In this document: in pieces, positions 5,291 through 52,405 of the stretch
Layout of the letters: each line of letters starts with the position of its first letter
How positions within the stretch are numbered: position 1 is the first letter of the stretch
Assembly (NCBI GenBank): GCA_000934665.2
Contig: JYFJ02002444.1
Coordinates: 1-56,896 of the forward strand
Source: Catajapyx aquilonaris
Lineage: Eukaryota
Direction of reading: 5' to 3'
DNA: 56,896 nucleotides
Translations under genes and position numbers: made by a program
The notes under the pieces: generated by a model
What the model was told of the DNA's origin: nothing
Seen by the model: the letters and a program-made list of their open reading frames with translations, nothing else
Databases searched by the model: none

Positions 5291-7443
5291 ATGATGGCCG
5301 ACATCAACAGTTTTGGTCTCTATTTGTTGTCCACCCTTCTGTTCCTCTCAGGGTCCAATAGTTCCCTGGCCCTGACTAACAATGCGGCCGAAAATATTCC
5401 TCATGCTGCTGATCCGGAACAGTCCAAGGAAGAGAGGCTGGAACTGGCCATACAAACAATCATGAAAACTATGGAGGATGGATTTGCTCGAACGGGTAAT
5501 AAGGAATATTTTGTTAATCATATGTATTGTTAATATGCTTTTTTCATTGTGCAGCACGAGAAGTGAGAGAAATCAAGGAGGGAGTGGCATCATTAGAAGA
5601 GGGGATCAAATCCTCAAAAAATGAAATGCAATCATCAGTAAAAAAGGAAATGACATCCATAAACGATGGTCTGAAATCTTTAGAAGAGAAATTGAGGTAC
5701 GTAAGTGAGCATGCAACCCAAATGCTTTTATTACCACCGTCCACCAATAGTCAAGGGTGGAATAATCGGGAATGTTATCATAGTCATCCTTTGCTATACT
5801 GTTAGGTCATGAAGCTGTTAAATGTGTATTCTGTAAGTCATTGTCGATAGATTAAGAAAGTAAGTTGAGAGGCATGTTCACCTAAATATTTACATTTTTT
5901 TTTTTCAAGATGTGTGATATTTTATTCCAGGGCACTGTCGAGTTGTAAGGAAGGTCAGACCCCTACGAGTGGTGACCTTGACCCTGCCACGAGGGACATA
6001 CAATCGGCATCTGAAGCGAGTCTCGCAGCAGAAAAGAGACTCAAGGCAGAGATTGGTCAGGCAGTGGACACTTTCACCTCATCAGTCACGAGAGCTTCGA
6101 TTGCTGAACAAAAAGTGGACAACGCAACTGTCTGTCCTACTGAATATGGTAGGTGAATTCTCATTGCTGGTACGCATTCTGTGCGTTGGATAAAAATATA
6201 AATTAGACTTGAGCTTGTATTTGCCATTAAAAACTGGAAAGTATAAGTTATTACGCACTCACAGTTGCAAGGAAGGTGCTTGGAGACACGCAGTTTTTTA
6301 CCAATAGGAAAAGGCTGACATGAGACATGCAATAATAAGCACGTCACTCGCAGAACTATGGCCTAACCGAGCTTCTATGCTACTGAGACATACGACATTG
6401 TACTTGATATATTTAAGACTGTGGGAAAAGATGTAATCAAGGTTCTCGGCAGAGTTTTGCAGAATAGAAAAATTAACGACTTCTTGACGACGAAATGCCT
6501 TAGATTCAGACAATATTTCTTTCACACCCGACACCTGCAATTCCCGCTACTTATATTTCTCCTACTATTATTCCTTCATCAGGTAATTGCGATGACGTTA
6601 AGCAACGAGGTCTCAGCACATCTGGCGCGTACACCGTCACCATTTCTGGAAAAAATGTCAAGGTGAGGCTCGCGGAAAAATGTCTCATTCACACGGATGA
6701 ATGATATTATGGGCTACATTATTTTGGTGGAATTAATAGAATTTACCTCACAAACTATAAAGTCGTCGTGTGTCCACAGGTGTACTGCGATATGGAGTCG
6801 GATGGAGGGGGGTGGACAGTGGTACAAAGAAGAGACGACATCGAGCCTCGCCTGGACTTCAATCGAGATTGGGCAGATTACAAGAGAGGGTTTGGTGATC
6901 TTAATGGGGAGTTCTGGCTGGGTGAGTTGCACTCTTGTCACTTATTGTCACCATCACAGAAGACGAATGGATTCACAGCCTTCCCGTATTGTCCCACCCC
7001 GTACAGGTCTTGACACCATCCACGGACTGACCAGTGACCCTTCCACTCCGATGAGGCTCCGGGTGGACCTGGAGGATTGGGAGGGGGAGGAGAGGGTCGC
7101 CTTGTACCACACTTTTAGAGTCCAAGATGAGGAGAAGAAGTACAACCTCACCGTGGGAGGGTACGAGAAGGGACCAGGAGAAGACCCGGGGGACTCTCTT
7201 GCCATCCACAATGGCATGGCCTTCGCCACATATGACCATGACAGCGATGGTAGTCGAAGGCACTGCGCAGCGAGTCACAAAGGTGGCTGGTGGTACAATT
7301 GGTGCCACGATGCCAATCTGAACGGAGATTCTTCTCTCAAGGGAAAGCACGACCAACGGAGCAACGGTATCATCTGGTACGATTGGAAGAGATATCATTA
7401 CTCTCTGAGAAGTACAGCCATGAAGATCAGACCCATCAGATAA
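5291..7443 (+). CDS. FREP1: secreted fibrinogen-domain protein (ficolin/tachylectin-like), ~407 aa
   Basis: Exons 5291-5495, 5555-5696, 5931-6148, 6583-6662, 6780-6921, 7007-7443 (1224 nt, open). Hydrophobic signal peptide, coiled coil, FBG motifs [44 protein letters not shown]. Confidence 0.88.
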
Positions 7444-7473
7444 ACGACCACTATCACATAATTACTGCATGTG

Positions 7474-7584
7474 CAGGGATGGAAAAAGAACCGCTTCTTT
7501 GGGCGGTAAGCGGTTCTTTTTCTATCCCTGCACATGGAAAAAAGAAGCGCTTCTTGGAAGGAAGCGGTACTTTTTCCATCCCTG
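7474..7584. mobile_element. hAT-like MITE just 3' of the FREP1 stop
   Basis: TIRs CAGGGATGGAAAAAG / CTTTTTCCATCCCTG; perfect 8-bp TSD TGCATGTG at 7466-7473 and 7585-7592. Confidence 0.85.
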
Positions 7585-10168: not shown

Positions 10169-12625
10169 TCAGCATGATGGCTTCGGCGATGGCGAAAAAA
10201 AGGATGTGATTTGCGTCTGAGTCTTCGCTTCCTCCGAGACACTAGTGTTTCCAGTCTTACTTCCAGCGCTGTTTGGGCTTTGACTGTTGTCCTGCTCCAT
10301 GTCTTCAACCCTGCATCTCTTCCGCTCCGTCTCATCCTCGTCCTCATCGTCCTGACAAAACTGTTCAGGCGAATCGAAGATCTTGTCCACTCCCATCACG
10401 TCCGCACACAGAAATTCATTGATTTTCATCCTTCCGCAATCTGGATGACGACCATACCTGTTGAGAAACAGCGCACTTTACCCTGTATTCATATAACATT
10501 TTTTTGTGCGAATTACATACATAGTTTCTATGGAACCATACCTTCCTATCGCGGCAAACAGTCTCCCAACATCTACTCTGGAAGCCTCCAGCAATGCGTA
10601 CATGTCATACAGATGGTCCCTCAGCTTCCGGTCCCCAAACGTGAAGTACACTACCCCACGACCACTCTCAGCCGCAGCCATCAACTGCAACAGACACTTG
10701 AGACGTGGATCGCCATGAAACACACCACAACCCCAGTTGCCTGTAGCCACACCCGAGGGCTGCCCCTGGGACAACTCAGGGGCAAACCCGACATAAGCTT
10801 TTCCCAACTCTCGCCGAACGTTCCTCGGACTGTACTGCAGAAAGGGACGGCTGAAATAGAGTGCGTCTATGGCCACGACACTGGTGATCCGTCGTCCGTC
10901 TTGGTCCACCGCAGTTTCATCTCTGAAGGTCCCGTTCCACTCGAAGGTCCCGCCGTACCCGCGATGCCTACTGAACCGCTGGCAGCCGTGGATCAGGATG
11001 CACTCGGTGTCCTCCATCGACTCGCAGATCAGCATCGAAGCCGCTAGTTCGGGGCAGAGCGCAAATCGGATCTCCTCTTGTACACAACCAGGTCCAAGGA
11101 AGCCGCCGCCTACAAACTTGTTCGCAAAGTCAACCTGCGCAGGGAAGAAAAACAATGCAGAAAAATTTACTTTCATTGAAAAATGCAGTTTCTGTCATGT
11201 ACTTTTCGCTATTAATTTGAATTTGCATTTATTGCCCAGTGAGCGCATGGTCCTTTTGGGGTACTTTTTGTTATAAATTTTTGCTGCGGATTACCTGCAG
11301 CATTCCCTCCCCTTCCGTCTCGATGTTTCCCTCGGACGTCACGTGGAATGCAGGTAGCGGCTTGTTGGATTCTTCCCACTTCGGAATCTCCTCGGGCGGA
11401 AAGTGACGCCTCGTGATGGTCACAACACCGTCTGCACCCTTCTTATACACACACCTGGAAACACCAGATGACAATTAGCAACAATTAAGCTTGCGGCTCA
11501 ATTTTGCTCCTGACCACGTTTACATATGAGCGATCTGCTCAGCGATGCGATGTTATTGTTTGGGGCGAAAATTGATTGGTACTTTCGCCCCAAACAATTG
11601 GTTTCATCACTGAGCGAAACGCTCGTATGTAAAAGCGGCCTAAAACCAGTTTCCTAAACATTAGACCGAATATTTCACCTGAAGTAGTTGAGGACACACT
11701 TGAGCTTCTCAGCGCAGACCTGCCTCATTTGCTGCAGCTTCTTCGATTCCTTTGCCTTACTTCCACTGCCCCTTGCGTCCGTCTGGAGAAGCCCAAAGAA
11801 GTTGATGGCCGGAAACGTGGCATATTCGGCTGTCCTGCGCTTCGAGTTGCGCTTCGGAAACGTGCAGAAAAACGCGTTTGCCAACAAGCACACCACCTGC
11901 GGGATCAAAAATGGGGTCAGAACAAGAGCGGACGACCTTCACGTAACTGACCTGCTCCTGCGACATGGACACGGATGAATTCCGCTTCCTCCTGAGCAAC
12001 GGGAGTTCCCTTTGGAACAAGTCCGGAGCACGCAAGGCCGTCTGAGCGATCCAAGGCAGCAGGAAATCCCTTAGGTACGCCTCCTCCTCTTCCTCCAGCT
12101 CTGACTCGAACAGGTACTCCAGTACGTCCAGGTGCTGCTCCGGAGCCTGCCTGTTGTAGCTGAAGATGGCAGCCTGGATATCCCGCCATCCGGACATCTT
12201 CCGGGAGAGTGCGGACCGGATGAGGTCCCACCGCCAACGGAGAGTCCGCTCATCCGCTTCGGACACTGGGAACATGTTACGCGGCGATTGCGGCATATGT
12301 ACGTGGTACGGATCCCAGTGCTCCGGCTCATCTGGCGGGTGTCGTGCGTACGGTTCCGGAGCTGATCCGGGTACAACTGGAAGCTGCCAAATGGTTAATG
12401 CGTGCCATTTCGCGCAATCATCGACATTACCTTGAACATGACTGTATGGTGCTGGGACGGCTTGATCCGGTGCAATTGCGGGCCACATCCCGGAGCACGG
12501 CTGATCTTCTCAATCGACGTGCCACGCCACGGCAACAGCTGCGTCTCACTGTTGCGGCTGGTCTCAGCCTCGTCGTCCATCGGCTCAGATGGTCCGCTGC
12601 CTGTCGACTCTTCCGCACCCGACAT
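10169..12625 (-). CDS. PARG: poly(ADP-ribose) glycohydrolase, ~628 aa
   Basis: Exons 12625-12431, 12383-11952, 11896-11679, 11454-11295, 11134-10542, 10457-10169 (1887 nt, open). Catalytic signature VDFANKFVGGGFLGPGCVQEEIRF, plus LLANAFFCTFP and VATGNWGCGVF. Confidence 0.95.
11512..11640. mobile_element. palindromic MITE-like element in PARG intron 3
   Basis: tttacatatgagcg...attgtttggggcgaaa / tttcgccccaaacaat...cgctcgtatgtaaa form a long imperfect hairpin; ends resemble the element at 54562-54717. Confidence 0.6.
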
Positions 12626-13829: not shown

Positions 13830-15957
<2,128 letters not shown>

Positions 15958-17545: not shown

Positions 17546-17982
17546 GTCTGGACAACATCCACCGACTGACCAGCGACCCTTCCACTCCGATGAGACTCCG
17601 GGTGGAGCTGGAGGATTGGGAGGGGGAGAAGAGGGTCGCCTTTTACAGCACTTTCATTGTTGCAAATGAAAAGGAGAAGTACGACCTCGTTGTGGAAGGA
17701 TACGTGGGTAGGGGACCGGTAGGAGGCCCAGGGGACTCTCTGGGAGCCCACTATGGCACGGCCTTCTCCACAAAAGACCGGGACAACGATGATTATGATG
17801 GATCGCACTGCGCACAGGAGTTCAAGAGTGGTTGGTGGTACCACAGCTGCGTCACTGCCCAACTGAACGGAGTTTATCTCAAGGGAATGCACAGTCAATC
17901 GTTTCAAGGTGTCCTCTGGTACCACTGGAAGGGAGATTATTACTCTCTGAAAAGAACAGCCATGATGATCAGACCCAGATAA
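17546..17982 (+). other. intact orphan/duplicated FREP terminal exon (FBG C-terminal half)
   Basis: Preceded by a copy of the FREP2 intron-5 3' end (tatgaatcaatatgtag|GTCTGGAC); open frame GLDNIH...GWWYHSC...MMIRPR*; no exons 1-5 of its own. Confidence 0.8.
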
Positions 17983-18470: not shown

Positions 18471-19867
18471 TTATTCCGGGAATTTACTCTGATATAATTG
18501 TACAGAGTAAGCATGATCAGAGAGTGCAGATGACGTATCCAATACACCAAAATGCACTGTTTTGCTCACGTGATTTGCCTTTATATTAATTGTCAAATCA
18601 GACTGGTCTTTAAATTTTCTCTTTGTAATCTGGAAATTATATGACTGCGCTTCTGTGTGTATTTTTAAATCAGTTGAGCACCTAAACTGTTTACCACAAA
18701 GGTGACAAGAAAATGGTTTCTCTCCTGCGTGCATCAATGTAATATGTTGTCTTACATATTTAAGGCTCGGAAACTCTTGATTGCAAATCAGACATGTAAG
18801 TGGTTTCATTCTGTGCCAACTCATATGGTACATCCAGACGGCTGGCGTTTTAAAGTCCCTCTTGCAAATCTTGCAATGAAATGGATGCGCTTCAATACTC
18901 AAGTCTGTCTCTCTCTTTATATGAGCTGCCAAAGCAAATGGGGTACCAAATCTCTTATTGCAAATTTGGCATCCGTATGCTTTCTTGCTGACACAACCAC
19001 CTTCAAATGTGTCCAGATGGATAACCTCCATCACATTTCCTTCAGAGGTCTCCTCCTCTTCTGCCTGAAAGATGTCAATACATTAGTGGAATCCTTCAGC
19101 CCATCTGCCAAAATAGATTAGCTTATCCGTGGCTAATGAGTCCATTTGCCATAATGAGTTCCATTTTCAAATAAAATCTTCCTCAATTTTTCTCTTATCA
19201 TGCCATCGGGGCCCCATGCATCAAACAATCCCAAAAGCCACTCAGCTTCAATAACTGGATTTAAGGTGTGACTTTGGGTATATACTAATAGGGAACAAGG
19301 GTGGCCCAACCCCTGAAGGGTCCGCACCCATTCTGTCCCCTCATTTACACATTTTACAGGAGAGGTAAAAATAGATTGAAAATACCAGGGCCAGTCAAAA
19401 CAAATTGAGACTGATTTTTATGTGATAAAGAGAATCAGTTCATGACTTGCGGTGAAGGTCATTGTGTCCAGTATGGATTGAAGTATTAGAACACCAATTC
19501 TTGTTCAAATATCCCACGCATTCTGGAAAATGGTCTATTCGCCCGTTCTCCTTATTGCCGACTATATTAAATTCACATCCGGCTTAGTTCACAGGTAGCT
19601 TTTGAGTGACTCAATATGCTTACACACCTTGACGTTCCTTTTATTTGTAACGGTCAAGGGATCATCCACATCGTCAGGGGCATCCGACATGGCAACAGAT
19701 GCCTCCTCTTCCTCCACCTTAACAGTGCTGATGTCTTCCACTGGACCAACTGGATGGGGATGAACATGTGACGAGGCGTCTTCCTCAATCCCGATCTTCC
19801 AGGTCTCCTCCTCAACGGTGATGTCCTCATCCTGGCACCTTTCTTCTTTCACCTCTGCCTTAATCAT
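18471..19867 (-). CDS. C2H2 zinc-finger protein ZF2 (acidic VKEE..DDPL N-terminus; partly degenerate fingers)
   Basis: Exons ~19867-19628 and 19064-18471 (phase 0, tttcag|GCAGAA); four finger-like units; paralogue of ZF3. Confidence 0.75.
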
Positions 19868-20871: not shown

Positions 20872-21748
20872 CTAAATATGTTGATTCCTGACATGTTTTT
20901 TTAAATAACCCGGGCTACTCAGAAACTGCCCACAAACATGACAAGAAAATTGATTCTTTCCTGTGTGCGTCAACATATGCGCTTTCAAATGTGATGGCCA
21001 AGGAAACTTTTTCTGGCAAATCAGACATCGCAGTGGTTTCCTTCCTGCGTGCGACCTCATATGGTTGGTCAAGGCAGACGCCAAATAAAATTCCCTCTTA
21101 CAAATCTGGCAACGAAATAGCTGCTCTCCGGAATTCTTGGCTGTGTGCCTCTTCATATGAGCTGCCAAACCAGATGCGGTAGTAAATCTCTCCTTGCAAA
21201 ATTGGCATTCACGCGGTTCCTTCCTGATGCCCGTCCCATCCAGTTGGAAAACATCCATCACATTTCCTTCAGAGGTCTTCTCCTCTTCTGACTGAAAGAT
21301 GCCAATACATTAGTGGCCATCTGTCAAAATGGGTTCGATTACCCATGGCTACTCATCAGCACCTGAAATTGCTACATAGTCAGGCCAGTGGAGAGCCGCG
21401 GCGGGTCCCACGGCAAATGCTTACACTAGTTCCGTTGTCTGCAAAGGCCAAGGGATCGTCCACATTATCTGGACCATCCGGTATGGCCACCAAAGCCTCT
21501 TCTTCCTCCACCTTAACGCTGCTGATGTCCCGCACTGGAACAACTGGACGCAGATGAACATGTGAAGAGGTGTCCTCCTCAATCTTCAAAGTCTGCTCAA
21601 TGGTGATGTCCTCATCACCTTCTTCTTTCACCTCTGCCTTAATCATTAATGACTTGCTCCTAAAAAATAATAATAATCAGGAACACATAATGTATGCAGG
21701 GTAATTGAACAAGGCAAGTACTCACTCCTCAGCATCTCCTGTCTCCAT
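20872..21748 (-). CDS. C2H2 zinc-finger protein ZF3 (4 fingers)
   Basis: Exons 21748-21726, 21659-21425, 21291-20872 join in frame (METGDAEESKSLMIKAEVKEE...DDPL...SEEEKTS...CQFC..); out-of-frame fifth-finger remnant downstream. Confidence 0.75.
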
Positions 21749-22237
21749 ACCAGGCTCAGATTTAGGCAAAATTGGAGAAAATAAAGCATAAGAAAAATTT
21801 TCGGATGAAAAGAACGAAGCCATCTTGGAAATTCTTGGGGTGCGTTCACTAACTCCATAATTTGAAAAGCAGCGATTTCCATTAGCATCGCTGTTGTCTC
21901 AAGTCGCTGCTACTTATCACCAATAGCGGTTATCAGATTTCTGTAGTCGTTACACGTTCTATTCCCATCCATTTAAGATAATGTCATTTAGAAAATATGT
22001 TTATTACGCAGTTTCCTTACAGCATAATATTGGTACTGTGCAGCATTAATTTCTTTCCAGAAATTACAATGATTTTATCATCCAATTTCCTTCACTTAAA
22101 GTGCGATCAATTTAATGGCGCCATTTTTGCAATGATTGATAGTTTCCAATTATTATTAGACAATTTATGAATTCATTATGATTTAGACCTGAAAACCTAA
22201 ATTTTCCTCTACCTCTATAACAATGCGACGTATATGC

Positions 22238-23127
22238 TCACGAGGGATGAGAATCAATAAGAAGGCCGCTTAACTTCCTTTGCGCACACCATTTCCTCCG
22301 GTGTTTTGCTAAAGTAGCTGGAGTACTAAAGTTTTGCTTGCAAACGTCGCAATTGTAAGGCGTCTCCTTCTTATGCAACGTCACATGGGCTCTCCAAGAC
22401 GGGTACTGAGAAAACCTTCTGTTACAAACCTCGCAATTGAACGGCTGCTCACCCGTGTGCAATCTCATGTGCGGAGTCAGACTACATTCCTGTGAAAAAC
22501 TCTCCTTGCAAATCGCACAACTAAACGGCTTTTCACCGGTATGAATCCGCATATGCCTTATCAACTGATAGGCCTGACTATACTTCCTGTCACACACGTG
22601 GCAACTCAATGTCTTCTCAACTGCGCACTTCTTGGCTTGTGACGACAACTGGAATGACTGCATGACCTTTTTCTTGACAGCCTGATAGTCCTGGTTAACT
22701 ACAATGTCTGTTCGCTTCATGTTCGTTAACGAAGCAACAACTGCAACACCATCTTTTTTGCATGCCCAGCTTCTGCATAATTTGTCACCCAAATTGTGGC
22801 CATCTAACTGCAGCACATTCTTCACATCTTCTTTTTCATGCTGAAATGTACAGACATCACTTAAAGCTATGTACTGTTCAGACTACACTATTAGATGCAT
22901 ACCTTACTGGTTCCATCATCAGTAATAGCCAAGGGGTCATCACCAGATTCAGAAACAAGTGTGGTAATAGTAACCAGTACTTCCTCCTTCAATGCCTCCG
23001 ACTTAACGTCACTTGTCGCAAGGGCTGACTGGGCTTCTTCCTTCACCGCAGACGCACACGCTTCTTCTGCTGTACCGTCTTCTACTTTCACATCAACCCT
23101 TGCATCAACCATAGGAGTCAGCAACAT
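22238..23127 (-). CDS. C2H2 zinc-finger protein ZF4 (3 C2H2 + 1 C2HC finger)
   Basis: Exons 23127-22903 and 22840-22238, phase 0; TGEKPF/TGEQPF linkers; acidic VKEE..DDPL first exon. Confidence 0.82.
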
Positions 23128-23330
23128 TATCCTGAAAAAATAATGTGAATTAACACATGCTGCACACTTGTTTCACATGTCTGCTCTAATACATCTACTT
23201 GCTGATTAAAAAATATCAATGTAATCTCACCCTGCAATATTTCTCTCCACAAAAACCCTCAAAAAACCATGAGTAGGACCCAAAAAATGTCCTAAATCGT
23301 ATTTTTCAACTTCTTTTCCAGTGGTTAGGG

Positions 23331-24342: not shown

Positions 24343-27904
<3,562 letters not shown>

Positions 27905-29307: not shown

Positions 29308-29344
29308 CTGAAACATACAGACATCACTTAAAACGACTTCTTAA

Positions 29345-32015: not shown

Positions 32016-37063
<5,048 letters not shown>

Positions 37064-38052: not shown

Positions 38053-38928
38053 TTATTAACCAAGGAAATAGGTCTAAAATTGATAATTGACTTGGGGTAA
38101 CCACCTTTGAAAGTGGGTACAACAGCTGCTTTAAAACAGACTTCGGGAACAGATGAATCGCGTATACACTTATCGAACATATCAAAAACAACTCGTCTCA
38201 ATTCAACTTTTAACTTGCAAAATGCGTTGGGTATTCCATCCGGTCCAGCAACAGAGCAGGGCTTTAAATGAATTTACGAACTTCCAGAAATCGCGGGGAG
38301 ACTTCAAATTGGGAGTTTCGTGCACCGTGACGGACCAGTACTTTTATGCCTTAGTTTTTTTGTGCCGATTAAAAAGCAATATTAATCCTCGTTTGATCTG
38401 TGTAGTTCCTTTTCCATTCCTTTATAGAGCTTGGCTAAGAGAGCGCTTTTCAGCGACTAGTTCGAGGTCAAACCAGGGGGTCTGTCTAACTCGCTTGTGC
38501 TCGGGATTCACCTGTTTATTGGTCGAAATTAACCCGTAGTCCAAGAGTATGCCAGTGGCTGCATAGTACACCTGCTTAGCTTGGTTAAGCTTGCTTAGCT
38601 TATCACCAATAGCGGTTATCAGATTTCGCTAGTCGTTACTCGTTCTATTCCCATCCATTAAGAAAATGTCATTCAGAAAAATGTTTATTATGCAGTTTCA
38701 TTACAGCATAAAATTGGTACCGTGCAGCATTTCCAGAAATTACAATGATTTTATTGTCCAATCTACTTATTACCAACAATAACTGCGATCATTTTAAAAT
38801 GGCGGCATTTTTGCAATGATTGATAGTTTCTAATTTTTATTAGACAATTAATGAATTCATTATGATGTGATATTTAGGCCTGAAAACCTAAATTTTCCTC
38901 TACCTCTGTAACAATGTGATGTACATGC

Positions 38929-39246
38929 TCACGAGGCATGAGAATCGAGAAGGCCGCCTAACTACCTTTGCGCACACCATTTCCTCCTGTGTCTCGCTAA
39001 AGTTGCTGGAGTACTAAAGTTTTGCTTGCAAACGTCGCAATTGTAAGGCGTCTCCTTCTTATGCAACGTCATGTGGGCTCTCCAAGACGGGTACTGAGAA
39101 AACCTTCTGTTGCAAATCTCGCAATTGAACGGCTGCTCACATCTCATGTGAGGAGTCAGACTACATTCCTGTGCAATACTCTCCTTGCAACTCGCACAAC
39201 TAAAAGGCTTTTCACCCGTATGAATCCGCATATGCCTTATCAACTG
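38929..39246 (-). pseudogene. ZF4 paralogue pseudogene fragment
   Basis: Copy of 22238-22567 with internal deletion and TAG at ~38962; 5' part replaced by transposon sequence. Confidence 0.85.
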
Positions 39247-39396: not shown

Positions 39397-40765
39397 TCTA
39401 TAATATTAAAATGCTTGCGGACTATGTATAAGCCCTCTGATTGGTCCGCCGCCGCGCATTGTTGCCCCCACCTCCCCATTGGCCCGCGTTCATTGTTCCC
39501 TGGACGCATTGTTACCATGACGCCTCCAATTGGCCCCCCTTCCGAGCATGCGCAATGGGTGGAAGAACGCCACAGTCGCTTGCTGGACGTCAACGAGGAC
39601 ACATCATTCTCCTCTCCCATGAAGACCCCTCCACCCTTCCACCTTCCTCCGCCCGCACGTCTTCACGGTGACCTCACAACAGGGGAGGGGGAGAGGGGAG
39701 AGGGGGGAATGGAACGTACGTGCCGTAAACAAACCGAATCGAATGTTGCCCAAGGTCGGAATCTGTTGTTTATCAGTGTTGCCAATAACTCCATGGACGG
39801 TTATGAACAAAGTAAAATAATTCCGGTTTTTTAAACGAGGTCCTTACTGCTGCCGTCAGATATGAGAAGACCGTAACTCAATGGCCACTTCCCCTTGCGC
39901 CGCTTGCGACGAGAAAAAAAAGCAGTGGTACCAAAAGCACCCGACAGTTGGAGTTGGGATGCCGTTCCTTTTTCCCCCTTCCCCCAACGCCACCTCTTGG
40001 ATGCTGTCAGTAACACTTGCTTTCTTTTCTCGCCGCAAGGGAAGTGGATAATGAGTTACGGTCCTCTCACATCTGACTGCAGTACTGGCATCCCCCAGTG
40101 GGAAGAATTGCAGGATTAACCCGGGGATAGACCGAGAACGTCAAAAGAAAGTGTCGTGAAGAATTAAACCAGTTTTTGATCGTGTAATATTATTTTTTTA
40201 ATTGTAGTTATTTTTTATTTATTAAAATAATCGCGGCCACCCTCGACACCCACGGAGACGGCGTCGCGACCCCCAGGTTGGGAACCACTGATCTAATACA
40301 GACACTGCCAAGTTCCATTGGCTGTTTATTAGTAAAAAGGGAAGTTATGAGCAGTTAGAAAAACGTGGTCGGACAGCGTGCATATGATTTAGATACATGT
40401 GCGAGTGCATGCGAATAGAGGCGGAATAGAGGTTGTGAGTTTTTGTTCATACAATAATTTTTTTTAAAAAATTGCAAAGGTATGGGTATGTTGAGGTGGG
40501 CAAATGCATATTTCCCAGCCAATGCAGAGGTGGGATTGCAGATTGGTCGCAGGGTATAGGGAATCACAGATATGTGAATGCACGGAGGAACGGGTGGGGG
40601 TGGGGGGTTTGAATATGATAGGCATCATCACTGGCAATATAAGTCCAAAGCGATTGAAAATATGGTGGGCACTGTAGGCCGCAGGCCTAGAAAAGAGCGA
40701 GCGAAGCGAGCGGATTTCTAGGCCAGCGCCCTAGGAGAATACGAGCGGAGCGAGGGTTTTCCTAG
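39397..40765 (+). mobile_element. non-autonomous Helitron, unit 1
   Basis: A|TCTATAATATTAAAATGCTTGCG 5' end; 3' GCGAAGC/GCGGAGC hairpins then CTAG. Confidence 0.85.
39849..40083. mobile_element. MITE nested in Helitron unit 1
   Basis: GTCAGATATGAGAAGACCGTAACTCA...TGAGTTACGGTCCTCTCACATCTGAC inverted ends, plus inner CCACTTCCCCTTGCG / CGCAAGGGAAGTGG. Confidence 0.6.
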
Positions 40766-42782
40766 TCTATAATATTAAAATCCTTGCGGTCTATGGCCGA
40801 GCCCTCTGATTGGTCCGCCCCCCGTATTGTTGCCGCCACCTCTTCCTATTGGCCCCCGTCCATTGTTGCTGCGTCGTATCCATGACGCATTGTTACCATG
40901 ACGCCTCCGATTGGCCCCTGTTCCGAGCATGCGCAGTGGGGGTGGAACACGTCCAGTTGCCTGCTGACCTCCGTGGGAGAAGGTCGCTTTTTTCCGTCTC
41001 TCCCGCCTCGGTCATCGTCACCACTGCCGGACCTTTACCCCTCCCCCACCCAACTGTCCCCCCTTCGCCGCGGGTATAGCTGGTTATTGAAAAATGGCCG
41101 TATGCACTGGCGGAGAAATGTAAGTTCGAAATTCTAACCTTAGCATTAGGCCTATACTGATCGGACTGCTTTGGATGAGCGCGCGTAGGCCTACCCATGC
41201 GCGGTGCTTTCACAGATGGGAAGAAGGCCTACAGTACACTGTCTTCGAGGCACTTCTTTCGGACGTAGAATCGAACGCAAATAATCGGGTTGCAAATCTA
41301 CCCACGTTCCAATTAGCCAGGAATGCATAGTGTTGATGGTCATCCAGTGGTGCCAACTGATGGCAGGTTGTTTATACAGTCAGTGAAGGTTATTGAGTTG
41401 GCACAGCTGGCAACCAACAACAATACAGACTCCAATTACACTGTACTCACGATTATCCGGGTGTGGATTATCCGTGGATCGCCATAATATTTTAAGGGCG
41501 ATAGCCCTTAAGTAAGACCGTAGCATAGATTTCAACAATGTTTCAACAATGAATTTTTCCTACTTCTTGTTGTTCTTCTTCTTCTTGTTACGTTTTTTTT
41601 TATTCGCCCTAACTCAAGTTCTGCTGTAGGTAGAGCTTCCAAATTTTGAACACAGATCCCACCCTCGTGAAGTGCATTCCTACCATTTACACTTTTACTT
41701 AATTCCTCTTCAAAACGCCGCAAAAAATTTTAAACCACCAAAAAATACGCATCATTTTTTTTGCTCAATAACTATTCGGAATTTGGTTTCTTCGTCAAAG
41801 GGCCGAAGATGCAGTAGGATGGTGCGGATCTATGTTCAAAATCCCACAGTTCCCAATGCTACAGGATTGGAGCTGTGATTTTTTTACCTCGTATTTTTTC
41901 TGTCATTACTTCATTTGTTCGTTACACTATCACCTAGAAACGTCAATTGTTGTTTACCACCTCATATATTGTTGTGGGTCAAAGGAGGACAAGATGAGCG
42001 ACGCCGAGTCGTACTGTCGCCGTTGGGTTTTCACCCACCCTTTGTGTTTTTTGTACCGTCTGGTACAGTTCTCAATGTATATATTCCGTATATTTTAGCG
42101 TATAGGCTATTTCATAATAATTAAATCAGACTAACCGTTGGCTGGTAGCACTCCACTTTCGTTTTTTTACGACTGTCTCTGTGAAAATAATTTTAGGGAC
42201 TTCTAAGCGACGAAAATCGTCTCCAATGCATTCATAGTGCAGACTGTATACTTGTATAGTGTAGACACTGTAGAGCATAAGTTATGCGTACTGTCAAAAA
42301 AGAACTGAAATTATATCAAAAACTTTCCCTTCAGTAAAAAAAAGAGAAGTAAGACCTCCGCGGCGGAATGAAAGTACTGAAACAAGGCAGGCGCACGTAA
42401 GATCTTCACCAATTGATTTAAGCTGTACCATAGGTCTTACTCAAGCAATTCTCAAGTACGGTATGGAACGTCTCGTAAAATGACTGCTGCAAACTACTCA
42501 GAGCAGTAGGTAGGATTTTATTATGAAAGGAAAAAAATGGGGGGAAAACTAAACCCATTCTAACAGACTTGGTCCAATCGAAAAAGTAAAATTCTAAGGT
42601 AAGTTCTATTTTTTTGGATTAACCAAGCAGCATGCTCTTTGTACAGCGAAATCAACAACCTGTGAATAGCTCCCTTTCCAGGACCATTTTCCGATTGTCC
42701 GTGTTTCCCAATAATCTGTGTTGCAACACCCGTGCAGTCATTAGCCAGGATAATAATCGGAAATACAGTGTATACCTATGTA

Positions 42783-43017
42783 CCGAAGCAGGTTGGCATG
42801 GTGGATAAGGCGTCCGACTCCTAATCGGGAGGTCCTGGGTTCGAATCCCGGGGCCGGCAACCCTGACCGTGGTTTTCTGTGGTTTTCCGCGGTCTTTCTA
42901 GGATAATATATTCCGGGGTCGCGTCCGTATAATAGGCCACAGCCGCTTCCTTCCTTCCCTATCCTTGGAGGTTATTGAAAGGCAATGCTGGGCCAACCTC
43001 CCTAATATCAATTAATT
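42783..43017 (+). mobile_element. tRNA(Arg-CCT)-derived SINE
   Basis: A box TGGCATGGTGG, B box GGTTCGAATCC, anticodon arm TCCGA-CTCCTAA-TCGGG, non-tRNA body ...AGGCCACAGCCGCTTCCTTCC; degenerate TSD cagtgt(at)acctatgt; empty site in Helitron unit 3 (~45253). Confidence 0.8.
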
Positions 43018-43325
43018 CAGTGTACCTATGTGTACAGACTGTATGGTCGCCCAGCTGTATTGTTGTACAAACACTGGGTAGGCTCGGTTCGCCACCTTGA
43101 ATCACATGCATCATTGGAACCACAGATAGGAGCCGTAGTATTTTCAAACTGCACACCCATAAATAACCCTTGACGAGTTTTTGGCAGGTTTTTGGGCCGC
43201 TTCTTTCTCTTTTTTTTGTCCAAAATGCGACGTAGGAGTGATATATTAATGAATAACAAATTCGCGCCAAAATTAAATTCGTGCTGGTCCTTTTCGTTGT
43301 AAAATGCCGGGAAAAAATTAATTTA

Positions 43326-43664
43326 CAGGGTGCTTCGGAAATAAACTTTTTAGAATCGTCCTGCTCTCAGAAAGTCGATCAGAAGTCGAATAGGCCTAAC
43401 AAGTGGACTCAGTCAGTCAGTCACTATATGCATTGTTCTTACGGTTACATAAAATATTACCACAACACTGTACAGTGTTGGACATTAATCGAGGCAGGAA
43501 CCGAAGATAAGCATTCTGCAAGCCAGGCGAGCAAGATTCCTTCTTCTGCCGGTTCCGAAAATGTCGCTAGCTTTATGCCTCGATATTATGTCCAACACTG
43601 TAGGCTACTATCAGTACTATGATAAACTCCCAAGGCCAAGGGTCCAGACTTTACGGGCACCCTG
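43326..43664. mobile_element. Tc1/mariner-like MITE nested in Helitron unit 2
   Basis: TA|CAGGGTG ... CACCCTG|TA; same insertion in unit 3 at 45562-46099. Confidence 0.65.
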
Positions 43665-44102
43665 TAGTACTGAGGGAACAGGTTTACATAAATGATCACG
43701 TGGGAGCAACGTGACCTTGGCATATACGACTCAACTTGGCGGGAACAGGGGGAGAATCTGGAGTTGCTATGGTGGTTGAGTCACAATCCAAGAGATGGCA
43801 GGAGCATATTGAACCGGGTTTGGCACCGCCAAGTTCTCCTTCTCTATGCACATCCTCGCGCACCAAATTCAAAAGCCCTCAGAACATCATAATAATTATG
43901 ATGTAGGGCCTACTCAGCCGTCAAAGGGGTATAAATATAAGGAGGGAGGAGGGAGGGACGGGGGAGTATGACGTGGGTAATTGTTGGATGAGCATCATTA
44001 AGAACACGGCCTACACCGCAGGCCTAGAAAAGAGCGAGCGAAGCCAGTGGTTTTCTAGACCTGCGCCCTAGGAAAAGACGAGCGGAGCGAGGGTTTTCCT
44101 AG

Positions 44103-46534
44103 TCTATAATATTAAATTGCTTGCGTTGTGTGTATAAGCCCTCTGATTGGTCCGCCCCCGTATTGTTGCCGCCACCTGTTCCTATTGGCCCCCGTCCATT
44201 GTTGCTGCGTCGTATCCATGACGCACTGTTACCACGACGCCTCCGATTGGCCCCCGTTCCGAGCATGCGCAGTGGGGGTGGAACACGTCCAGTTGCCTAC
44301 TGGCCTCCTTGGGAGAAGGTCGTTTTTTTTCCCCCGTCTCTCCCGCCGCCGTCATCGTCCCCTGCCGGACCCTTACCCCTTCCCCACCTATGCTACCTGT
44401 CCCCCCTTCGCCACTCGTCACTGATGGTTATTGAAAAATGGCCGTAGGCACTGGTGGAGACGGGTGGAGAATAATGTAAGTTCGAAATTAGAGCATTTTG
44501 GCGGCTTACAGGGCTCAAAATCCATGCAAAATTTTCATTCACACAAATGTAATAGCCTACCATTGCTGATCGGGCTGCTTAGGAACTGCGTGCGTAGGCC
44601 TACCCATGCGCGGTGCTTTCACAGATGGGAAGTACAGTACACTGTCTTCGGGGCACTTCTTGCGGTGCAGTGTCGGAAACTGACTACCGTCGAATGCGTA
44701 GAATCGAACGTAAGAAGGCGGGGTGCAAATATCACGCGTTCGAATTATTAGCCTGGAACGTACTATATTGTTGGTCTTCCGGCAGGTTGTTTATTGAGTC
44801 AGTGAAGGTCATTGAGTTGGCACAACTGGCAACCAACAATAGAATCCAATTACACTGTACTCCCGATTATCAGGGTGCGGATAATACGTGCATCGCCATA
44901 ATAATATAAACATTTACGTCCGAAAAAATGTCTGGAATTTTTGTCCCACTGCTAGATAGTGCATACTGATAACTTAGCAGTGGTAAGGAAATTCCACCCA
45001 ATATCAATATCAATGTCTCACCAAAGGAAAAAAATATATACCATACTTACTCTAGAAGGCAAAGTAAAAATCTATGGTAAGTTTTATTTTTTGAATTAAC
45101 CAAGCAAGCAGCATGCTCTTTGTACAGTAGTACATCAACAACCTGTGAATAGCTCCCTTTCCAGGATCATTTTCCGATTGTCCGTGTTTCCCAATTATCT
45201 GGCAACACCCGTGCAGACGTGCAGTCATTAGCTTGGATAATAATCGGAAGTACAGTGTACCTATGTGTACAGACTGTAGGGTCGCCCAGCTGTATTGTTG
45301 TATAAACACTGGGTAAGCTCTGTTCGCCACCTTGAATCACAGCCATCATTGGAACCACAGATGGGAACTGTATTTTCAAATTGCACACCCTTATCCCTTT
45401 CACAAGTTTTTATCCGGTTTTTGGGCCGTCTCTTTCCTTCTTTTTGTTCAAAATTCGATGTAGGAGTGATATTAATGAATAACAACTTTGAGCCAAAATT
45501 AATCATTTAAATTCGTATAGTGGTCCTTTTGATTGTAAAATGCCGGAGAAAAATTCATATACAGGGTGTCCCGCAAAATAAACTTTTTAGAATCGTCCAG
45601 CTCTCAGAAAGTCGATAGGCCTCACAAGTTGACTCAGTGACTATGGTACATTGTTCTTATGGTTACATAATATTACCACAACACTGTACTATGATAAACT
45701 CCCAAGGGTCGGGGAGGTGTAGATGGCCGAGATGGTAACGTCTCGGCTTGCTGAGTGAAAGGCCCCTGGTTCGATACCCGCCTGGGGAGTTTTCCTTTCA
45801 CCTGCGTCAGGAGGGTTTCTGACCTGTACCTTATTAATTGGAGGTGTCTGGCAACCTAATCTCCTGGGGAACAGCACATGACCCCTTTACAGATCTTGCA
45901 CTTGCACCTATATGTTCCCTCCCCAAAAATCCCTACCCCTACCCTACATCCTTGACTCCTTGCACCGGATATTGAAGTTGAAATATAGAAAAATCGAGTT
46001 AAATGCTGGTATTCCACCCCCCTAAAAAGGCTCCGCCTTATCACGGGGTAACTTTAAAAAAAAAACCCTCCCCAGAGTTCATACTTTACGGGCACCCTGT
46101 ACTGAGGGAACATGTTTACATAAATGATCACGGGTGGGAGCAACGTGACCTTGGCATATACGACTCAACTTGGCGGGAACATGGGGGGGAATCTGGAGTT
46201 GCTATGGTAGTTGAGTCACCATCCAAGAGATGGCAGGAGCATATTGAACCGGGTTTGGCACTGAAAAGTTCGCCATCTCTATGCACATCCTCCAGGGCCA
46301 AATTCACAAACCATCAGGACATCATAATAATTATGATGTACTTAGCCGTCAAAGGTTTAATATAAGGAGGGGGGAGGAAGGGGGAGGGGAGTATGATGAG
46401 AATAATTGTTGGGTGAGCATCATTTAGAACATGGCCTACACCTCCGGCCGCAGGCCTATAAAACAGCGAGCGAAGCGAGTGGTTTTCTAGGCCTGCGCCC
46501 TAGGAAAAGGCGAGCGGAGCGAGGATTTTCCTAG
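44103..46534 (+). mobile_element. non-autonomous Helitron, unit 3
   Basis: TCTATAATATTAAA start after unit-2 CTAG; ends ...GCGGAGCGAGGATTTTCCTAG|T. Confidence 0.85.
45711..46065 (+). mobile_element. second tRNA-derived SINE (poly-A tail) nested in the mariner-like MITE of Helitron unit 3
   Basis: A box TGGCCGAGATGG, B box GGTTCGATACC, A-run 46056-46065, degenerate TSD ctcccaagggtc/ctccccagagttc; absent from unit 2. Confidence 0.7.
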
Positions 46535-46683
46535 TATAAATAATTAAAAGTAGCACTCTTTAAGAGGTCTAAACATAATATTATACACTTTGCCTTGCCA
46601 TAATTGCCAGACTCCCTTTTCATTGTACCGTACAAGACTCATAAATCCTAATCTGCAAGAGTATTATGTCCCACCCCATACAG

Positions 46684-47120
46684 GTCTGGACAGCATCCAC
46701 GGACTGACCACTTCCACTCCAATGAGACTACGGATTGACCTGGAGGATTGGGAGGGGGAGAAGAGGGTCGTCGCCTTGTACAGCACTTTCGTGGTCGGAG
46801 GGGAAGAGGAGAAGTACAGGCTCACTGTGGGAGGGTACGAGGAGGGACCGGGAGGTGAAGGCCCTGGGGACTCTCTGGACTACCACAATGGCAGGGCATT
46901 CACCACAAAAGACAGGGACAACGATGATCGCACTGGAGAGAACTGCTCAGAGGAGTACAAGGGTGGATGGTGGTACCGTAATTGCCACTTTTCCCAACTG
47001 ACCGGACTTTATCTCAAGGGAGAGCATGACGACCAATCCAGTAAAGGTGTCAACTGGTACCACTGGAAGGGATATGCTTACTCTCTGAGAAGAGCAGCCA
47101 TGCTGATCAGACCCAGATGA
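46684..47120 (+). other. intact orphan FREP terminal exon
   Basis: ccccatacag|GTCTGGAC acceptor; open frame GLDSIH...GGWWYRNCHF...MLIRPR*; only ~150 bp of intron 5 upstream before the Helitron array. Confidence 0.8.
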
Positions 47121-47970: not shown

Positions 47971-47971
47971 T

Positions 47972-48310
47972 TCTTTCATCCTGAAATGTACACATATCAC
48001 TTAAAACATGTGCAACTTCTTAAGGCTACGTACCATTCAGAGTACACTAGATGCACACCTTATATTACTGGTTTTATCATCAGTAATAGCCAAGGCGTCA
48101 TCACCAGATTCAGCCCCAACTCTGGTAGTGACCAGCATTTCATCCTCTACAGCCTCCAACTGAACGCCACTTGTTGCCTTCACAAAGACTGTGGATCATC
48201 AAGGTACGACTGGGCTTCTGCTTTAAACGCCGACGTCCACGCTTCTTCTGCTGTACTGTCGTCGTCTTCTATTTTCACCTCTACCATTCGAGTCATTGCC
48301 ATCATCCTGA
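47972..48310 (-). pseudogene. ZF4 paralogue relic (intron and first exon only)
   Basis: Aligns to 22830-23140 (MVEVKIEDDDSTAEEAW..SGDDALAIT). Confidence 0.75.
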
Positions 48311-49676
48311 AAGAATAATGTGAATTAACACATACTGCACGACACATACTTGTATGTTGTGTCTCTTTGATATTATCCACGCAGAACATTACTAATGATT
48401 AGAAAATATCAATGGAAACTCACCATTCAATATTTCTTTATTATTTATTATTGAGACTGTTTGTACTTTGCAAATTACAATTATTTTGCTCAGGTCAGTA
48501 CAGCAAAACCTGGATAATTATAACAGCAGACGGCAGAGAGAAAAATGGGCATGATTGGCATGCGAGAGAAAAATTACTCTCTCAAGCAAAATGTTGGCTG
48601 TGAGTGCCACAAATTCAATGATCAAAATGTACGCAGACTTTATTGGGATACCAATTTCGCGGCTTGTATAATTAGCGTTAAATTATTTTTCTAGTTTTGC
48701 ATTGTCCACTATAACTAACAATTACTTGTAGGTAGGTTTAAACCAAACGTCACATGTCTAGGTTGAGGGGGATGAAATATACACTGTATATAGTTGGTAC
48801 TTTTGTGGAGAATATCTATAGTGAAACGCTCTGTACATTAATGCAATATTTATGACTGTCAATTTGTCTGCTCTACCCTTAGGTGTAATGGAAGTTAGTG
48901 GCCATGGAGGCAGCAGAACTGTCCTTATATTTGCCACTTTCATGAGATGACACAATGTACATAATGAATAAATACATCATTTATCTATAATATAGATCGG
49001 AAATTAAAACGACACCCGTACTTTGTACTTCCTGATCCATTTTGGCAGTAAGAAGATAATGACCACCTTTCACCTCATCAAATTAAAACTGCTTACATCT
49101 GACTTTGACGAATGTCATTATGTAAACATCCTCCGCTTATCTGGGCATAAAAATGCACGTGATCGTTGTTCCATTTGAGGGGAATATTCGGAACAAGTGT
49201 CCGTCTTTTTTTCTTCCATAAGTAGGCCTGACATCGCAAGTGTTTCAGCCACGTTGTATCATTATTCTCTGGTCACATGGAGTTCACTGGAATTGCAATT
49301 CAAGCTCGCTTTTGTCACTTCATTCCTTGTGATCTTCTGATGAAAGTTTCGGAGCGGGATAAACTCACGAAAACATGTCTGCCGATAAGTGTGTCAGTGC
49401 CCTTCTCCCACAAATGTCTTATTTGCGGTCACCAATGTCAATATTTAATCAGTGCGTCCCACAGGATTGAGGAGAAAGGAGCAAGGGGAGTTCAAAGAGC
49501 ATAAAATTTCCTAACCATAGCACACGTGATAGATGATCTTAAGGAGGCCTCAGCCTCTGCCTATAAATGTCTTATCTGAGGTCACCAATGCAATGTCACT
49601 ATATTTAAGCAGTAAGCCCCACCGGATTGAGGAGAAAGGAGTCGTCTTGATCCAGTCAAGTGCAGCATCCTCCGAG

Positions 49677-52405
49677 ATGATGGCCAACTTCAGCAGTTTT
49701 GGTCCCTATTTGTTGTCCACCCTTCTGTTGTTCCTCTCAGGGGACAATCATTCCCTGGCCCTCACAAACAATGCAGCCGAAAACATTCCCCGTGCCGCCC
49801 ATCCGAAGGAAACCAGCAAGGAAGATGGAGTAGACTTGGCCATGGTGATGAGAGCTATGGAGGATGGATTTGCTCAATCTGGTAATAATAAAGGGCCGAT
49901 GGATAATATTATTATTATCACACCTTGTTTTAAAATCCGTTGAATATGCTCTTGCTTTCTTCATTCTGCAGCACGAGAAGTGAGAGAAATCAAGGGGGAA
50001 GTGAAGTTATTAAAAGAAGGAATGAAATCATTAGAAGAGAAATTGAGGTAAGTAAGGGACCACGTGTGTCAACCCAACAGCTCTTATTGCCACCAATATA
50101 TAGTTCAGGGTAGAATAGTCGTGATGCTGTCACAGGCATTCTTTCCCAACATGGTAGATTATGAAGCTATATGTGTTCGTGAAAACAGTGAGGAATTATT
50201 AAGAAGACGGTTTAATATTGAATGTTGACCTATGTGGGCCTAATTATTTCTTCAAAATACGTGCAATTCATTCCAGCCATGCACTGGACACTATCACCTC
50301 ATTGGTGACGGATATTGTGAACAACGCAACTGTCTGCCCGACCGAATCTGGTAAGAATTCCGATCATTGCTTACGTATATTCTGTGCGTTAGATGAAAAT
50401 ATTAATATGATTTTTGTGCTTTCATTTGCTACAAGTACCGTATAGTCAGTTACACTCACACCTTTGCAAGGAAAGCTGTGAGGAAATTGTGTCTATTACC
50501 AATGTCAAAAAAGCTGACCATGAAGTGTACAGAAAATAGGCAGGGCGACAATGTAACTGCGGCCTATGTAACTGAGCAAAATGCTTGTAAGGGATGCTTT
50601 TAAAACAGTGGGAAAGGGTGTTAATGTGGAGGTGCTCCAGCAGAGTTTTGAAAAACTGACTGGTTTTGCGACGATGAAGTGAATGAAGACTGATTTACAC
50701 TATTTCTTTCAGACCATACACCTTCCGCACTTCCTCCATCCAATTGCCATGACCTTCTGCAACGAGGGCACATATCTTCTGGCGAGTACTCTGTGACCAT
50801 CTCTGGAAAAAATGTTAAGGTCAGAAAGAGGGCGCATTCGCTCTGAATGATAGCGGGCTACATCACCTAATGTCGTCTGGTCCACAGGTGTATTGCGACA
50901 TGACCACGGATGGAGGAGGGTGGACTGTCATACAAAAAAGAGACGACATCTGGTCTCACGAGGACTTCAATCGAGATTGGGCAGATTACAAGAGAGGGTT
51001 TGGTGATCTGAATGGGGAGTTCTGGCTGGGTGAGTTGCACTCTTGTCACTTATTGTCACCATCACAGCAGACGAATGGATTGGCAGGCCTAACGAACCAG
51101 AATTCAAAGTGGGGCGAGATAAAATGAAGACCACAATTCAATACGGGTCCAATTGTGAAAATATAAAATGTTTGGGAAGCGAAAAAACTATTTAATTTTG
51201 TTTCCGATCATGCTGGTAGGCAATTATGCTTTGACTTGATGACAGATGAAAGAGAAACGAATATCTGACAGAACTTGCATAGAAATCGGCATATGTAATT
51301 ATATTTCATTTAGATACTTTCAATGCTCACAATTGGGCCATTCTTGCACTGTATTGTTCCTTTGGCCTAAATATGGAGACTTTGCAGACTAAGTATGATT
51401 GTGATATGTATAGGAGACACATTCTTCGCGCCAGAGTTACATGATATTCAATTAAATGTAATGTTTTTTGGCCTACCATGCCACATGTATACATTATAAA
51501 GTATCGGCCATTTTTAACCACTTCCCGAGGGCGTAGGTCAAAGATTTTTTGGTAACATGTAGACCCACAAGTCTGCTTTATTTGCCACTAAACTAGGTTT
51601 CGCACTGCTCCTCGGAGGGGAACGTTCCAATGGTAAAGCAAAATCTTCTTCGGAAGGAAATCAAAAGTCGTGATGGGACACAAAAATCACTTGAAAATCA
51701 CTGATATTTTCAAAATCGCAGGTCACTTGTAGCGTATTAGAAGCCAATTTTAGACAATTCTAGTGACATTCCAGCTAATTTTGAATTTTCTACAGAAGGA
51801 CATCCACCAAAATAATAACATAAACAATTAAAAGTACTCTCTCAGAGGTCTAAACATACACTTTGCCTTGCCATAATTGCTGAACTCCCTTTTCATTGTA
51901 CTGTACATGACTTGTAAATCCTAATCTGCACGAGTATTATGTCCCACCCCATACAGGTCTGGACAACATCCACGGACTGACCACTTCCACTCCAATGAGA
52001 CTCCGGATTGACCTGGAGGATTGGGAGGGGGAGAGGAGGGTCGCCCTGTACAGCACTTTTGTGGTCGGAGGGGAAGAGGAGGAGAAGTACAAGCTCACTG
52101 TGGGAGGGTACGAGGAGGGACCCGGAGGAGGAGACCCGTGGGACTCTCTTGCCTCACACAATGGCATGGCCTTCTCCACAAGAGACAGGGACAACGATGG
52201 TGATGGTGGAAATAACTGCGCAGAGAGGTCCAAGGGTGGCTGGTGGTACAAATCGTACAATGGATGCCTCCATTCCAATCTGAACGGACTTTATCTCAAG
52301 GGAGAGCACGGCCAATACGATCAAGGTGTCATCTGGGGCTATAACTGGAAGGAATCATGGAGTTACTCTCTGAGAAAAGCAGCCATGATGATCAGACCCA
52401 GATGA
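49677..52405 (+). CDS. FREP5: secreted fibrinogen-domain protein, ~350 aa
   Basis: Exons 49677-49881, 49972-50047, 50277-50350, 50713-50819, 50888-51029, 51957-52405 (1053 nt, open). Confidence 0.88.

Follow-up and report, generated by a model that had tools for sequence, protein, structure and literature searches.

A clade of fibrinogen-related genes in Catajapyx aquilonaris under positive selection at the S1 pocket

An array of FREP genes on one contig

The window, that is, the whole stretch of DNA analysed here (56,896 nucleotides of the forward strand of contig JYFJ02002444.1), is an entire contig of the 285.6-Mb assembly GCA_000934665.2 of Catajapyx aquilonaris. From motif scans, self-comparison and reading of splice sites, we modelled on its plus strand five six-exon genes for fibrinogen-related proteins (FREPs), four of them intact and one a pseudogene, and found two orphan terminal exons and a minus-strand copy cut by the contig end (Table 1). 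As shown below, the lining and rim of the S1 ligand pocket encoded by the terminal exons are under strong, continuing positive selection, while the Ca-binding aspartates are under purifying selection.

Each FREP gene appears, by eye, to encode a hydrophobic leader, a stretch rich in heptads and a linker containing Cys, and its fibrinogen (FBG) domain lies in exons 4-6. This layout of leader, coiled coil and FBG domain resembles that of angiopoietin-like proteins. Pfam recognised the domain (PF00147) in exon 6 (E = 6.7e-41) and exon 5 (E = 9.9e-18); exons 1-3 of gene 1, the N-terminal exons being short, had no Pfam match. The hydrophobic N-terminal stretch was conserved across 19 aligned copies, as read by eye and not by a predictor. 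No collagen-like Gly-X-Y repeat occurs in the four full gene models, no transmembrane segment was seen in the four intact models, and no immunoglobulin superfamily (IgSF) domain was recognised by Pfam in the N-terminal exons ahead of the FBG domain.

The family in the genome

Genome-wide searches returned at least 154 terminal-exon matches (150 of 188 candidates scored), along with 135 of 140 candidates for exon 5 and 66 of 73 for the leader exon. We retrieved 70 loci, a subset of these matches, which together with the window gave 75 distinct open terminal exons; loci L025, L035, L040, L050, L051, L054 and L064 yielded no open exon under our filter, broken exons being excluded by design. In a midpoint-rooted tree without support values, 51 of the 75 grouped with the window copies, and we refer to these as the clade. 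Its scaffold is about 69% identical overall, and pairwise synonymous differences of 0.04-0.42 point to a young radiation. The closest database protein by identity was carcinolectin-5b (56%).

A second contig, C9616, matches the window at 15.4-18.2 kb with 97% identity in non-coding DNA (18 differences in 693 positions), and this stretch is probably an allele or a very recent duplicate. From this near-identity, the family counts may include uncollapsed haplotypes.

Positive selection falls on the S1 pocket

Codon models were fitted to the 51 intact terminal exons of the clade (144 codons) with our own GY94 code, not codeml. The overall ratio of nonsynonymous to synonymous rates (omega) was 1.03. 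Comparison of M1a with M2a gave a likelihood-ratio test statistic (LRT) of 649.6, with omega 4.65 at 17% of the sites, and those of M7 with M8 and of M8a with M8 gave 624.9 and 574.4. Twenty-four sites had an M8 posterior above 0.95, 20 of them within residues 62-132 (numbered on the terminal exon of gene 3) and four outside. Diversifying selection, as put forward by the first-pass annotation of this DNA, is thus supported by M7/M8 and by the further codon models, dN/dS at the patches lying above 1, the ceiling set beforehand as speaking against it.

The terminal exon aligns gap-free to ficolins from the first P-domain Cys to its end, and L- and M-ficolin were the best sequence and fold matches. 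An alignment-based fold of the gene 3 exon reached a pLDDT of 88.7 (33.6 for a single-sequence fold) and matched ficolins and the tachylectin-5A (TL5A) structure 1jc9 with a TMq of 0.85 (rmsd 1.9 to 1jc9). Seven S1 positions were fixed from published structures before the site-selection results: in FIBCD1 the S1 residues are Tyr405, Asn413-Cys414, His415, Tyr431, Ala432, Trp443 and Lys381 (PMC3908420), and in TL5A the site comprises Tyr210, His220, Tyr236 and Tyr248 (PMC1242226). As FIBCD1, TL5A and the present exon share the same spacing from the two cysteines, the equivalent positions in gene 3 are residues 93, 101, 103, 119, 120, 131 and 67, with residues 119, 120 and 131 corresponding to TL5A Tyr236, the pocket-base Ala and TL5A Tyr248. 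Six of the seven were selected, His103 being the exception (Fisher p = 8e-5), which agrees with the earlier proposal that the variable patches correspond to the ligand-binding site of tachylectin-5A and ficolins, the S1 pocket of FIBCD1. By residue equivalence, the selected residues would cluster on the binding face.

Omega was 3.9 for S1 and its neighbours and 4.1 for the Ca loop, as against 0.87 for the remaining P-domain columns, 0.52 for residues 1-56 and 0.21 for the three Ca-site Asp. With separate rates, the S1 set had a synonymous rate (alpha) of 1.74 and a nonsynonymous rate (beta) of 4.89 (p = 6e-7). Several sites combined an estimated synonymous rate near 0 with a nonsynonymous rate of 3-18; sites 16, 37, 64 and 127 were fast in both kinds of change.

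All twelve loop strings quoted by the first-pass annotation are present, in the terminal exons starting at 7007, 17546, 27465, 36567, 46684 and 51957, and their variation is clustered as it had claimed, selected columns making up 20/70 in residues 62-132 against 4/74 elsewhere (Fisher p = 2e-4). Its near-invariant framework, conversely, is overstated: identity over the 120 non-selected columns is 77% for the six exons and 78% for the 51, and invariant columns number 66/144 and 21/144, respectively. Indels do fall in the loop patches, where lengths range modestly from 5 to 7 residues (Ca loop) and from 6 to 10 (last loop), but comparable length variation lies outside the pocket, with 10-34 residues ahead of GDSL and 5-8 close to the start of the exon, and the KG loop keeps a length of 7 in 47/51 copies. 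Likewise, the exons of the proposed six-exon array are real, although two of them (17546 and 46684) are orphans without exons 1-5 of their own; a frameshifted seventh (15496-15957) and a minus-strand eighth had been overlooked, and the 51957 exon has WDSL in place of the GDSL block described as shared.

Robustness of the signal

The signal persisted when gap flanks were masked (LRT 525 on 100 codons), with another aligner (639), with F61 codon frequencies (660), with segment-specific trees (213 for residues 62-105, 185 for residues 106-145) and when double- and triple-base changes were permitted (345). Tree-free counts over 1275 pairs gave, at S1, proportions of nonsynonymous (pN) and synonymous (pS) differences of 0.55 and 0.37 (pN/pS 1.51), compared with 0.14 and 0.23 (0.63) for residues 1-56. 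In the 12 closest pairs the ratio was 2.9 at S1 and 0.95 for residues 1-56, values biased upward by the choice of low-pS pairs. Five null simulations, with tip shuffling or recombination, rate variation or both, produced LRTs of 0-114 and omega of at most 2.3. As controls, exon 5 had omega 0.38 and LRT 14 (40 copies) and exon 1 had omega 0.59 and LRT 4 (19 copies); exon 4, tried for the same use, gave no matches. Approximately unbiased (AU) tests between segment trees gave rejection throughout and are uninformative, each tree having been fitted to its own short segment.

We do not claim weak selection in exon 5 (LRT 14) or in residues 1-61 (LRT 42), both values lying inside the null range.

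Composition of the pocket

Taken as six residues, the pocket has 50 different patterns across the 51 copies. Tyr, Trp and Phe together make up 25% of the residues at the 20 selected P-domain sites, compared with 1% at 20 other variable columns; aromatic residues serve sugar stacking and protein binding alike. The Ca-site aspartates D79 and D81 are both kept in 46/51 copies, and the disulfide pair equivalent to TL5A Cys206-Cys219 in 45/51, gene 4 being among those that lost it. In gene 4 the second pocket Cys is replaced by Gly, and a near relative (L019), which has also lost this Cys, carries a Cys-Cys pair in its last loop.

We took as the canonical acetyl pocket Tyr/Phe, His, Tyr, Ala and Tyr/Trp at the positions of FIBCD1 405, 415, 431, 432 and 443 (PMC3908420). 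The five occur together in none of the clade copies, leaving the label 'lectin' of the first-pass annotation unproven, nor in any of 24 other FBG exons of the same genome (0/24). By their sequences, then, the proteins appear TL5A-like in scaffold and site, yet not classifiable as acetyl-binding lectins. The comparison of the loops with complementarity-determining regions (CDR-like) holds as an analogy in position and aromatic content but not in mechanism, there being no sign of somatic or combinatorial assembly, whereas a germline multigene repertoire is borne out by the 51 or more intact terminal exons of the clade.

Sources of variation and the orphan exons

Duplication, loss and point substitution under selection drive the variation. 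Segment exchange between paralogs is only partly shown, by patterns such as the following. A PHI-like incompatibility test gave p = 0.002 at third positions, 0.10 over all bases and 0.37 for non-selected codons; in a longest-identical-run test, one of 1275 pairs reached a corrected p < 0.01 and four p < 0.05. Loci L014 and L024 are identical across residues 89-145, and between the 15496 exon, whose window copy is a pseudogene, and its C9616 counterpart all 12 substitutions sit inside one 53-base KG-loop patch.

The C9616 copy of gene 2 (L022) is near-identical and has an open terminal exon. Comparison of 15496-15957 with L022:261-703 showed each of the two 8-base insertions to be a near-copy of the bases next to it, with a further 8-base indel in the 3' flank; we take the insertions in the terminal exon to resemble the excision footprints of DNA transposons. 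In the same comparison, a 9-base unit is present three times in the KG loop. Separately, one 3' loop module, with a longer last loop and an added Gly, is common to ten copies with differing 5' halves (L008, L028, L032, L033, L034, L036, L038, L045, L047 and window gene 5), a hint of either module exchange or a young subclade.

The two orphans look like decaying remnants, as judged from the 5'-truncated exon 5 that precedes the C9616 copy of the 17546 orphan and from the 9 nonsynonymous and 3 synonymous codon differences between these two copies. Upstream of the 46684 orphan, local repeated DNA stands in place of exons 1-5. In both orphans the frame is open, the AG acceptor intact and the phase correct, as would be the case if they were alternative last exons spliced to an upstream exon 5 to give several pockets per gene. 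We consider this very unlikely: 17546 is preceded by a pseudogene, the C9616 copy with its truncated exon 5 is the remnant of a whole gene, the 9:3 differences lie mainly in the framework and are consistent with decay, and most other clade exons have, by eye, their own exon 5 within 6 kb.

The repeats (Table 1) are nested, with pieces 79-88% identical at 39.4, 40.7, 42.6, 44.0, 45.1 and 46.1 kb, and include two open reading frames without a Pfam match.

Gene 4, neighbouring genes and upstream regions

Intron 3 of gene 4 contains two in-frame phase 1-1 exons with intact GT/AG sites; with both included, the gene would encode an open 486-aa protein of leader, coiled coil, LDLa, LDLa and FBG domain. 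The second added exon matched PF00057 and the first had no Pfam match. The terminal exon of this gene also has an in-frame insert of about 20 residues, rich in Glu, Asp and Gly, before GDSL.

A poly(ADP-ribose) glycohydrolase (PARG) gene lies between FREP genes 1 and 2; its product shares 55-62% identity with proteins of insects, crustaceans and ticks, none in the database being closer, which suggests an arthropod with no near relatives there. C2H2 zinc-finger genes are interspersed with the FREP copies. One of them has been co-duplicated head-to-head with the FREP genes, its copies being about 87% identical, and other zinc-finger genes lie elsewhere in the window.

About 60-100 bases upstream of exon 1, 16 copies share a conserved promoter-like block in which a TATA-like word comes after a CCAAT core, suggesting shared regulation. 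A loose kappaB-like motif occurs in 5 of 16 such upstream regions, which are related and non-independent (10 matches, 2.1 expected).

Table 1. Features of the 56,896-nucleotide window. Residue numbers refer to the terminal exon of FREP gene 3.
Feature	Position	Strand	Remarks
FREP gene 1, 406 aa	5294..7443	+	intact; GT/AG boundaries, open frame
Gene 1 exons	5294-5495, 5555-5696, 5931-6148, 6583-6662, 6780-6921, 7007-7443	+	
FREP gene 2	13833..15957	+	pseudogene; in-frame stop in exon 2; terminal exon 15496-15957 with two 8-base insertions
Orphan terminal exon	17546..17982	+	open frame, intact acceptor, no exons 1-5 of its own
FREP gene 3, 375 aa	24346..27904	+	intact; reference for residue numbers, residue 1 = 27467
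Gene 3 exons	24346-24550, 24611-24770, 25005-25078, 25439-25545, 25660-25801, 27465-27904	+	
Residue 67	27665..27667	+	= TL5A Arg186 / FIBCD1 Lys381; selected in M8 and grid test, not in per-site test
Ca loop residues 82-88 and helix residues 92-93	27710..27745	+	loop omega 4.1; residue 93 = TL5A Tyr210 / FIBCD1 Tyr405
Residues 100-104 around cis-peptide Cys	27764..27778	+	100, 101 and 104 selected, His103 not
Residues 119-132, end of KG loop and W-x-x-W-K-G loop	27821..27862	+	9 selected sites
FREP gene 4, 385 aa	32016..37063	+	intact; 486 aa with two LDLa-type exons; terminal exon 36567-37063
Gene 4 added exons (intron 3)	33672-33842, 34243-34374	+	
Orphan terminal exon	46684..47120	+	open frame, intact acceptor, no exons 1-5 of its own
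FREP gene 5, 349 aa	49680..52405	+	intact
Gene 5 exons	49680-49881, 49972-50047, 50277-50350, 50713-50819, 50888-51029, 51957-52405	+	
Further terminal exon	56809..56896	-	3' end only, cut by contig end
PARG gene	~10478-12509	-	PF05028, PF20811
Co-duplicated C2H2 zinc-finger genes	21913-23244, 28612-29332, 38599-39246, 48019-48437	-	
Other zinc-finger gene	1613-2755	+	
Other zinc-finger genes	18471-19082, 20872-21309, 53573-54700	-	
Nested local repeats	39397-46548		

Discussion

With moderate confidence, we interpret these genes as a lineage-specific, recently expanded clade that has evolved through tandem duplication and loss and, now and then, the exchange of segments, with immune non-self recognition as the putative driver. 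Invertebrate FREPs are described as pattern-recognition proteins with variable copy number (PMC4833078, PMC1242226). Under this interpretation, the leader would direct secretion and the coiled coil with the linker Cys would form an oligomer, so that each gene would display one Ca-stabilised, aromatic-rich pocket in several copies. One gene would amount to one pocket, giving a germline repertoire without somatic assembly, and the family as a whole would cover many ligands. The likeliest of these would be surface molecules of microbes or parasites, glycan or peptide, bound for agglutination or opsonisation, and the ligand would not chiefly be the N-acetyl group bound by tachylectin-5A. An arms race would account for the repeated replacement of pocket residues.

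Several observations weigh against parts of this interpretation. With regard to selection, the site posteriors are empirical-Bayes values (NEB) from our own code; the per-site test with a free synonymous rate was passed (p < 0.05) by 16/24 M8 sites and 4/7 S1 sites; four selected sites fall outside the P domain; and the synonymous rate is raised at the seven S1 sites (1.74 vs 0.88 overall), so that part of the excess may reflect local mutation or conversion. That selection on the pocket is real we nonetheless hold to be very likely. With regard to function, leader or signal peptide, coiled coil and linker Cys were called by eye, without a predictor program; all five canonical acetyl-pocket residues are found in 0/51 copies, four in 1/51, three in 2/51 and two or fewer in 48/51; and the same surface serves fibrinogen gamma as its polymerisation pocket, where peptides bind (PMC1242226). 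The strict kappaB motif occurs in 0/16 upstream regions, and GATA is not enriched (20 occurrences against 17 expected). FBG proteins act in gamete self-recognition in Ciona (PMC7018956), and mosquito FBN9, a proven immune FREP, is reported to be without positive selection. The immune role, and pathogens as the selective agent, are proposed by analogy, and we consider them somewhat favoured.

A bolder proposal is that the clade has given up acetyl-sugar binding and that S1 now serves as a paratope-like site, rich in aromatic residues, whose ligands are variable proteins or peptides. Short-tract exchange would renew the pockets and shared coiled coils would allow chains to mix, so that an arthropod lineage with no described relatives would possess a germline repertoire comparable to antibodies and built on the FBG scaffold. 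This we entertain only tentatively, as a rather improbable extension.

It is unlikely, though compatible with strong binding-face selection and loss of the acetyl pocket, that the proteins serve reproduction or self-recognition (in egg coat, seminal fluid or spermatophore) and were diversified by sexual conflict or self/non-self discrimination. The v-Themis proteins of Ciona are polymorphic fibrinogen-like proteins of the vitelline coat (PMC7018956), and the shared promoter block suggests expression in a common tissue; v-Themis, however, is described as a small number of loci with multiple alleles, coupled to a gene for a sperm receptor (PMC7018956), whereas the present family has dozens of paralogs spread over many contigs, and the neighbours in the window are zinc-finger genes and PARG.

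We give a similarly low probability to secretion by a gland, as saliva, venom or defensive fluid, with FBG domains binding variable proteins of prey, host or enemy. Fast paralog turnover and binding-face selection are typical of gland-secretion families, and the homologues include fibrinogen-domain proteins named as reptile venom components; these, however, carry the collagen domain PF01391, absent here, and at 47-51% identity are no closer than horseshoe-crab and coral FREPs.

Slightly less probable again is non-immune surface binding, in which gut-lining, cuticle or symbiont-sorting proteins would bind a variety of dietary, commensal or chitin-like glycans. The S1 site of FIBCD1 binds chitin (PMC3908420), and the single-domain fibrinogen-related domain (FReD) proteins of Biomphalaria are reported to respond little to infection (PMC7588048), but pocket residues would not be replaced again and again if the ligand were invariant, as chitin is. 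Last, omega > 1 might be mimicked by loops that are misaligned, prone to mutation or converted, or by relaxed constraint in redundant copies. This idea can draw on signs of conversion (third-position p = 0.002 and the 53-base patch with all 12 substitutions between two otherwise identical copies of one exon), on the raised synonymous rate at some sites and on rate-variation nulls reaching LRT 114, but is largely refuted by the observed LRT of 650 (345 with multi-base changes, 525 masked), the tree-free excess and the flat control exons, and we regard it as extremely improbable.

FREP families have been viewed as specificity repertoires since 2005, on the basis of alignments, the single-gene selection tests consulted having been negative or weak. 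In this clade the signal is clean and strong at pocket residues that were defined beforehand from structures, and one scaffold carries about 50 natural variants of the pocket, so that the equation of pocket diversity with ligand diversity becomes directly testable. We found no publication that locates positive selection between paralogous FREPs in the S1 pocket, in a search that left the subscription literature mostly outside. Immunologists are unlikely to be surprised by the result, and the function is putative.

The fold and the layout relate the clade to several known proteins. Of the vertebrate ficolins and FIBCD1, L- and M-ficolin are the best matches in sequence and fold, but here there is no collagen stalk, no transmembrane segment was seen and copies number dozens. 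Tachylectin-5A and -5B and carcinolectin-5 share the FBG fold, the Ca-site aspartates and the Cys pair with identical spacing, and likewise lack collagen; the N-terminal coiled-coil region is longer here than in tachylectin-5 and carcinolectin-5, and the acetyl pocket, fixed in TL5A, is here formed by the fastest-evolving residues. Biomphalaria glabrata also has a large FBG family, of 73 genes, in which sFReD domains are more diverse than the FBG domains of IgSF-bearing FREPs (PMC7588048). Diversity of the snail FREPs is described as residing mainly in IgSF domains and as partly somatic (PMC7588048), whereas the clade has no IgSF domain and no sign of somatic diversification.

The closest parallels are the FBN/FREP genes of Anopheles gambiae (53-59) and the FREPs of Drosophila (14-43), which are likewise tandem, lineage-specific expansions of secreted single-FBG proteins, and in which diversity at the residues of the TL5A P-domain site has already been described and interpreted as a recognition arsenal (PMC1242226, PMC2429915, PMC4833078). 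The four aromatic funnel residues are kept in most Anopheles and Drosophila domains (PMC1242226), while the full set occurs in none here. The published single-gene tests consulted compared alleles or species and detected no selection in FBN9 and weak selection in FBN8 (LRT 9-12), whereas here paralogs were compared. Finally, 135 exon-5 matches, a figure that uncollapsed haplotypes may inflate, stand against the 1-59 genes listed for arthropods (PMC4833078). By its lineage-specific tandem expansion with diverse P domains, the clade appears to be of the mosquito FBN type, and it is an unusually strong instance of this known kind of FREP expansion.

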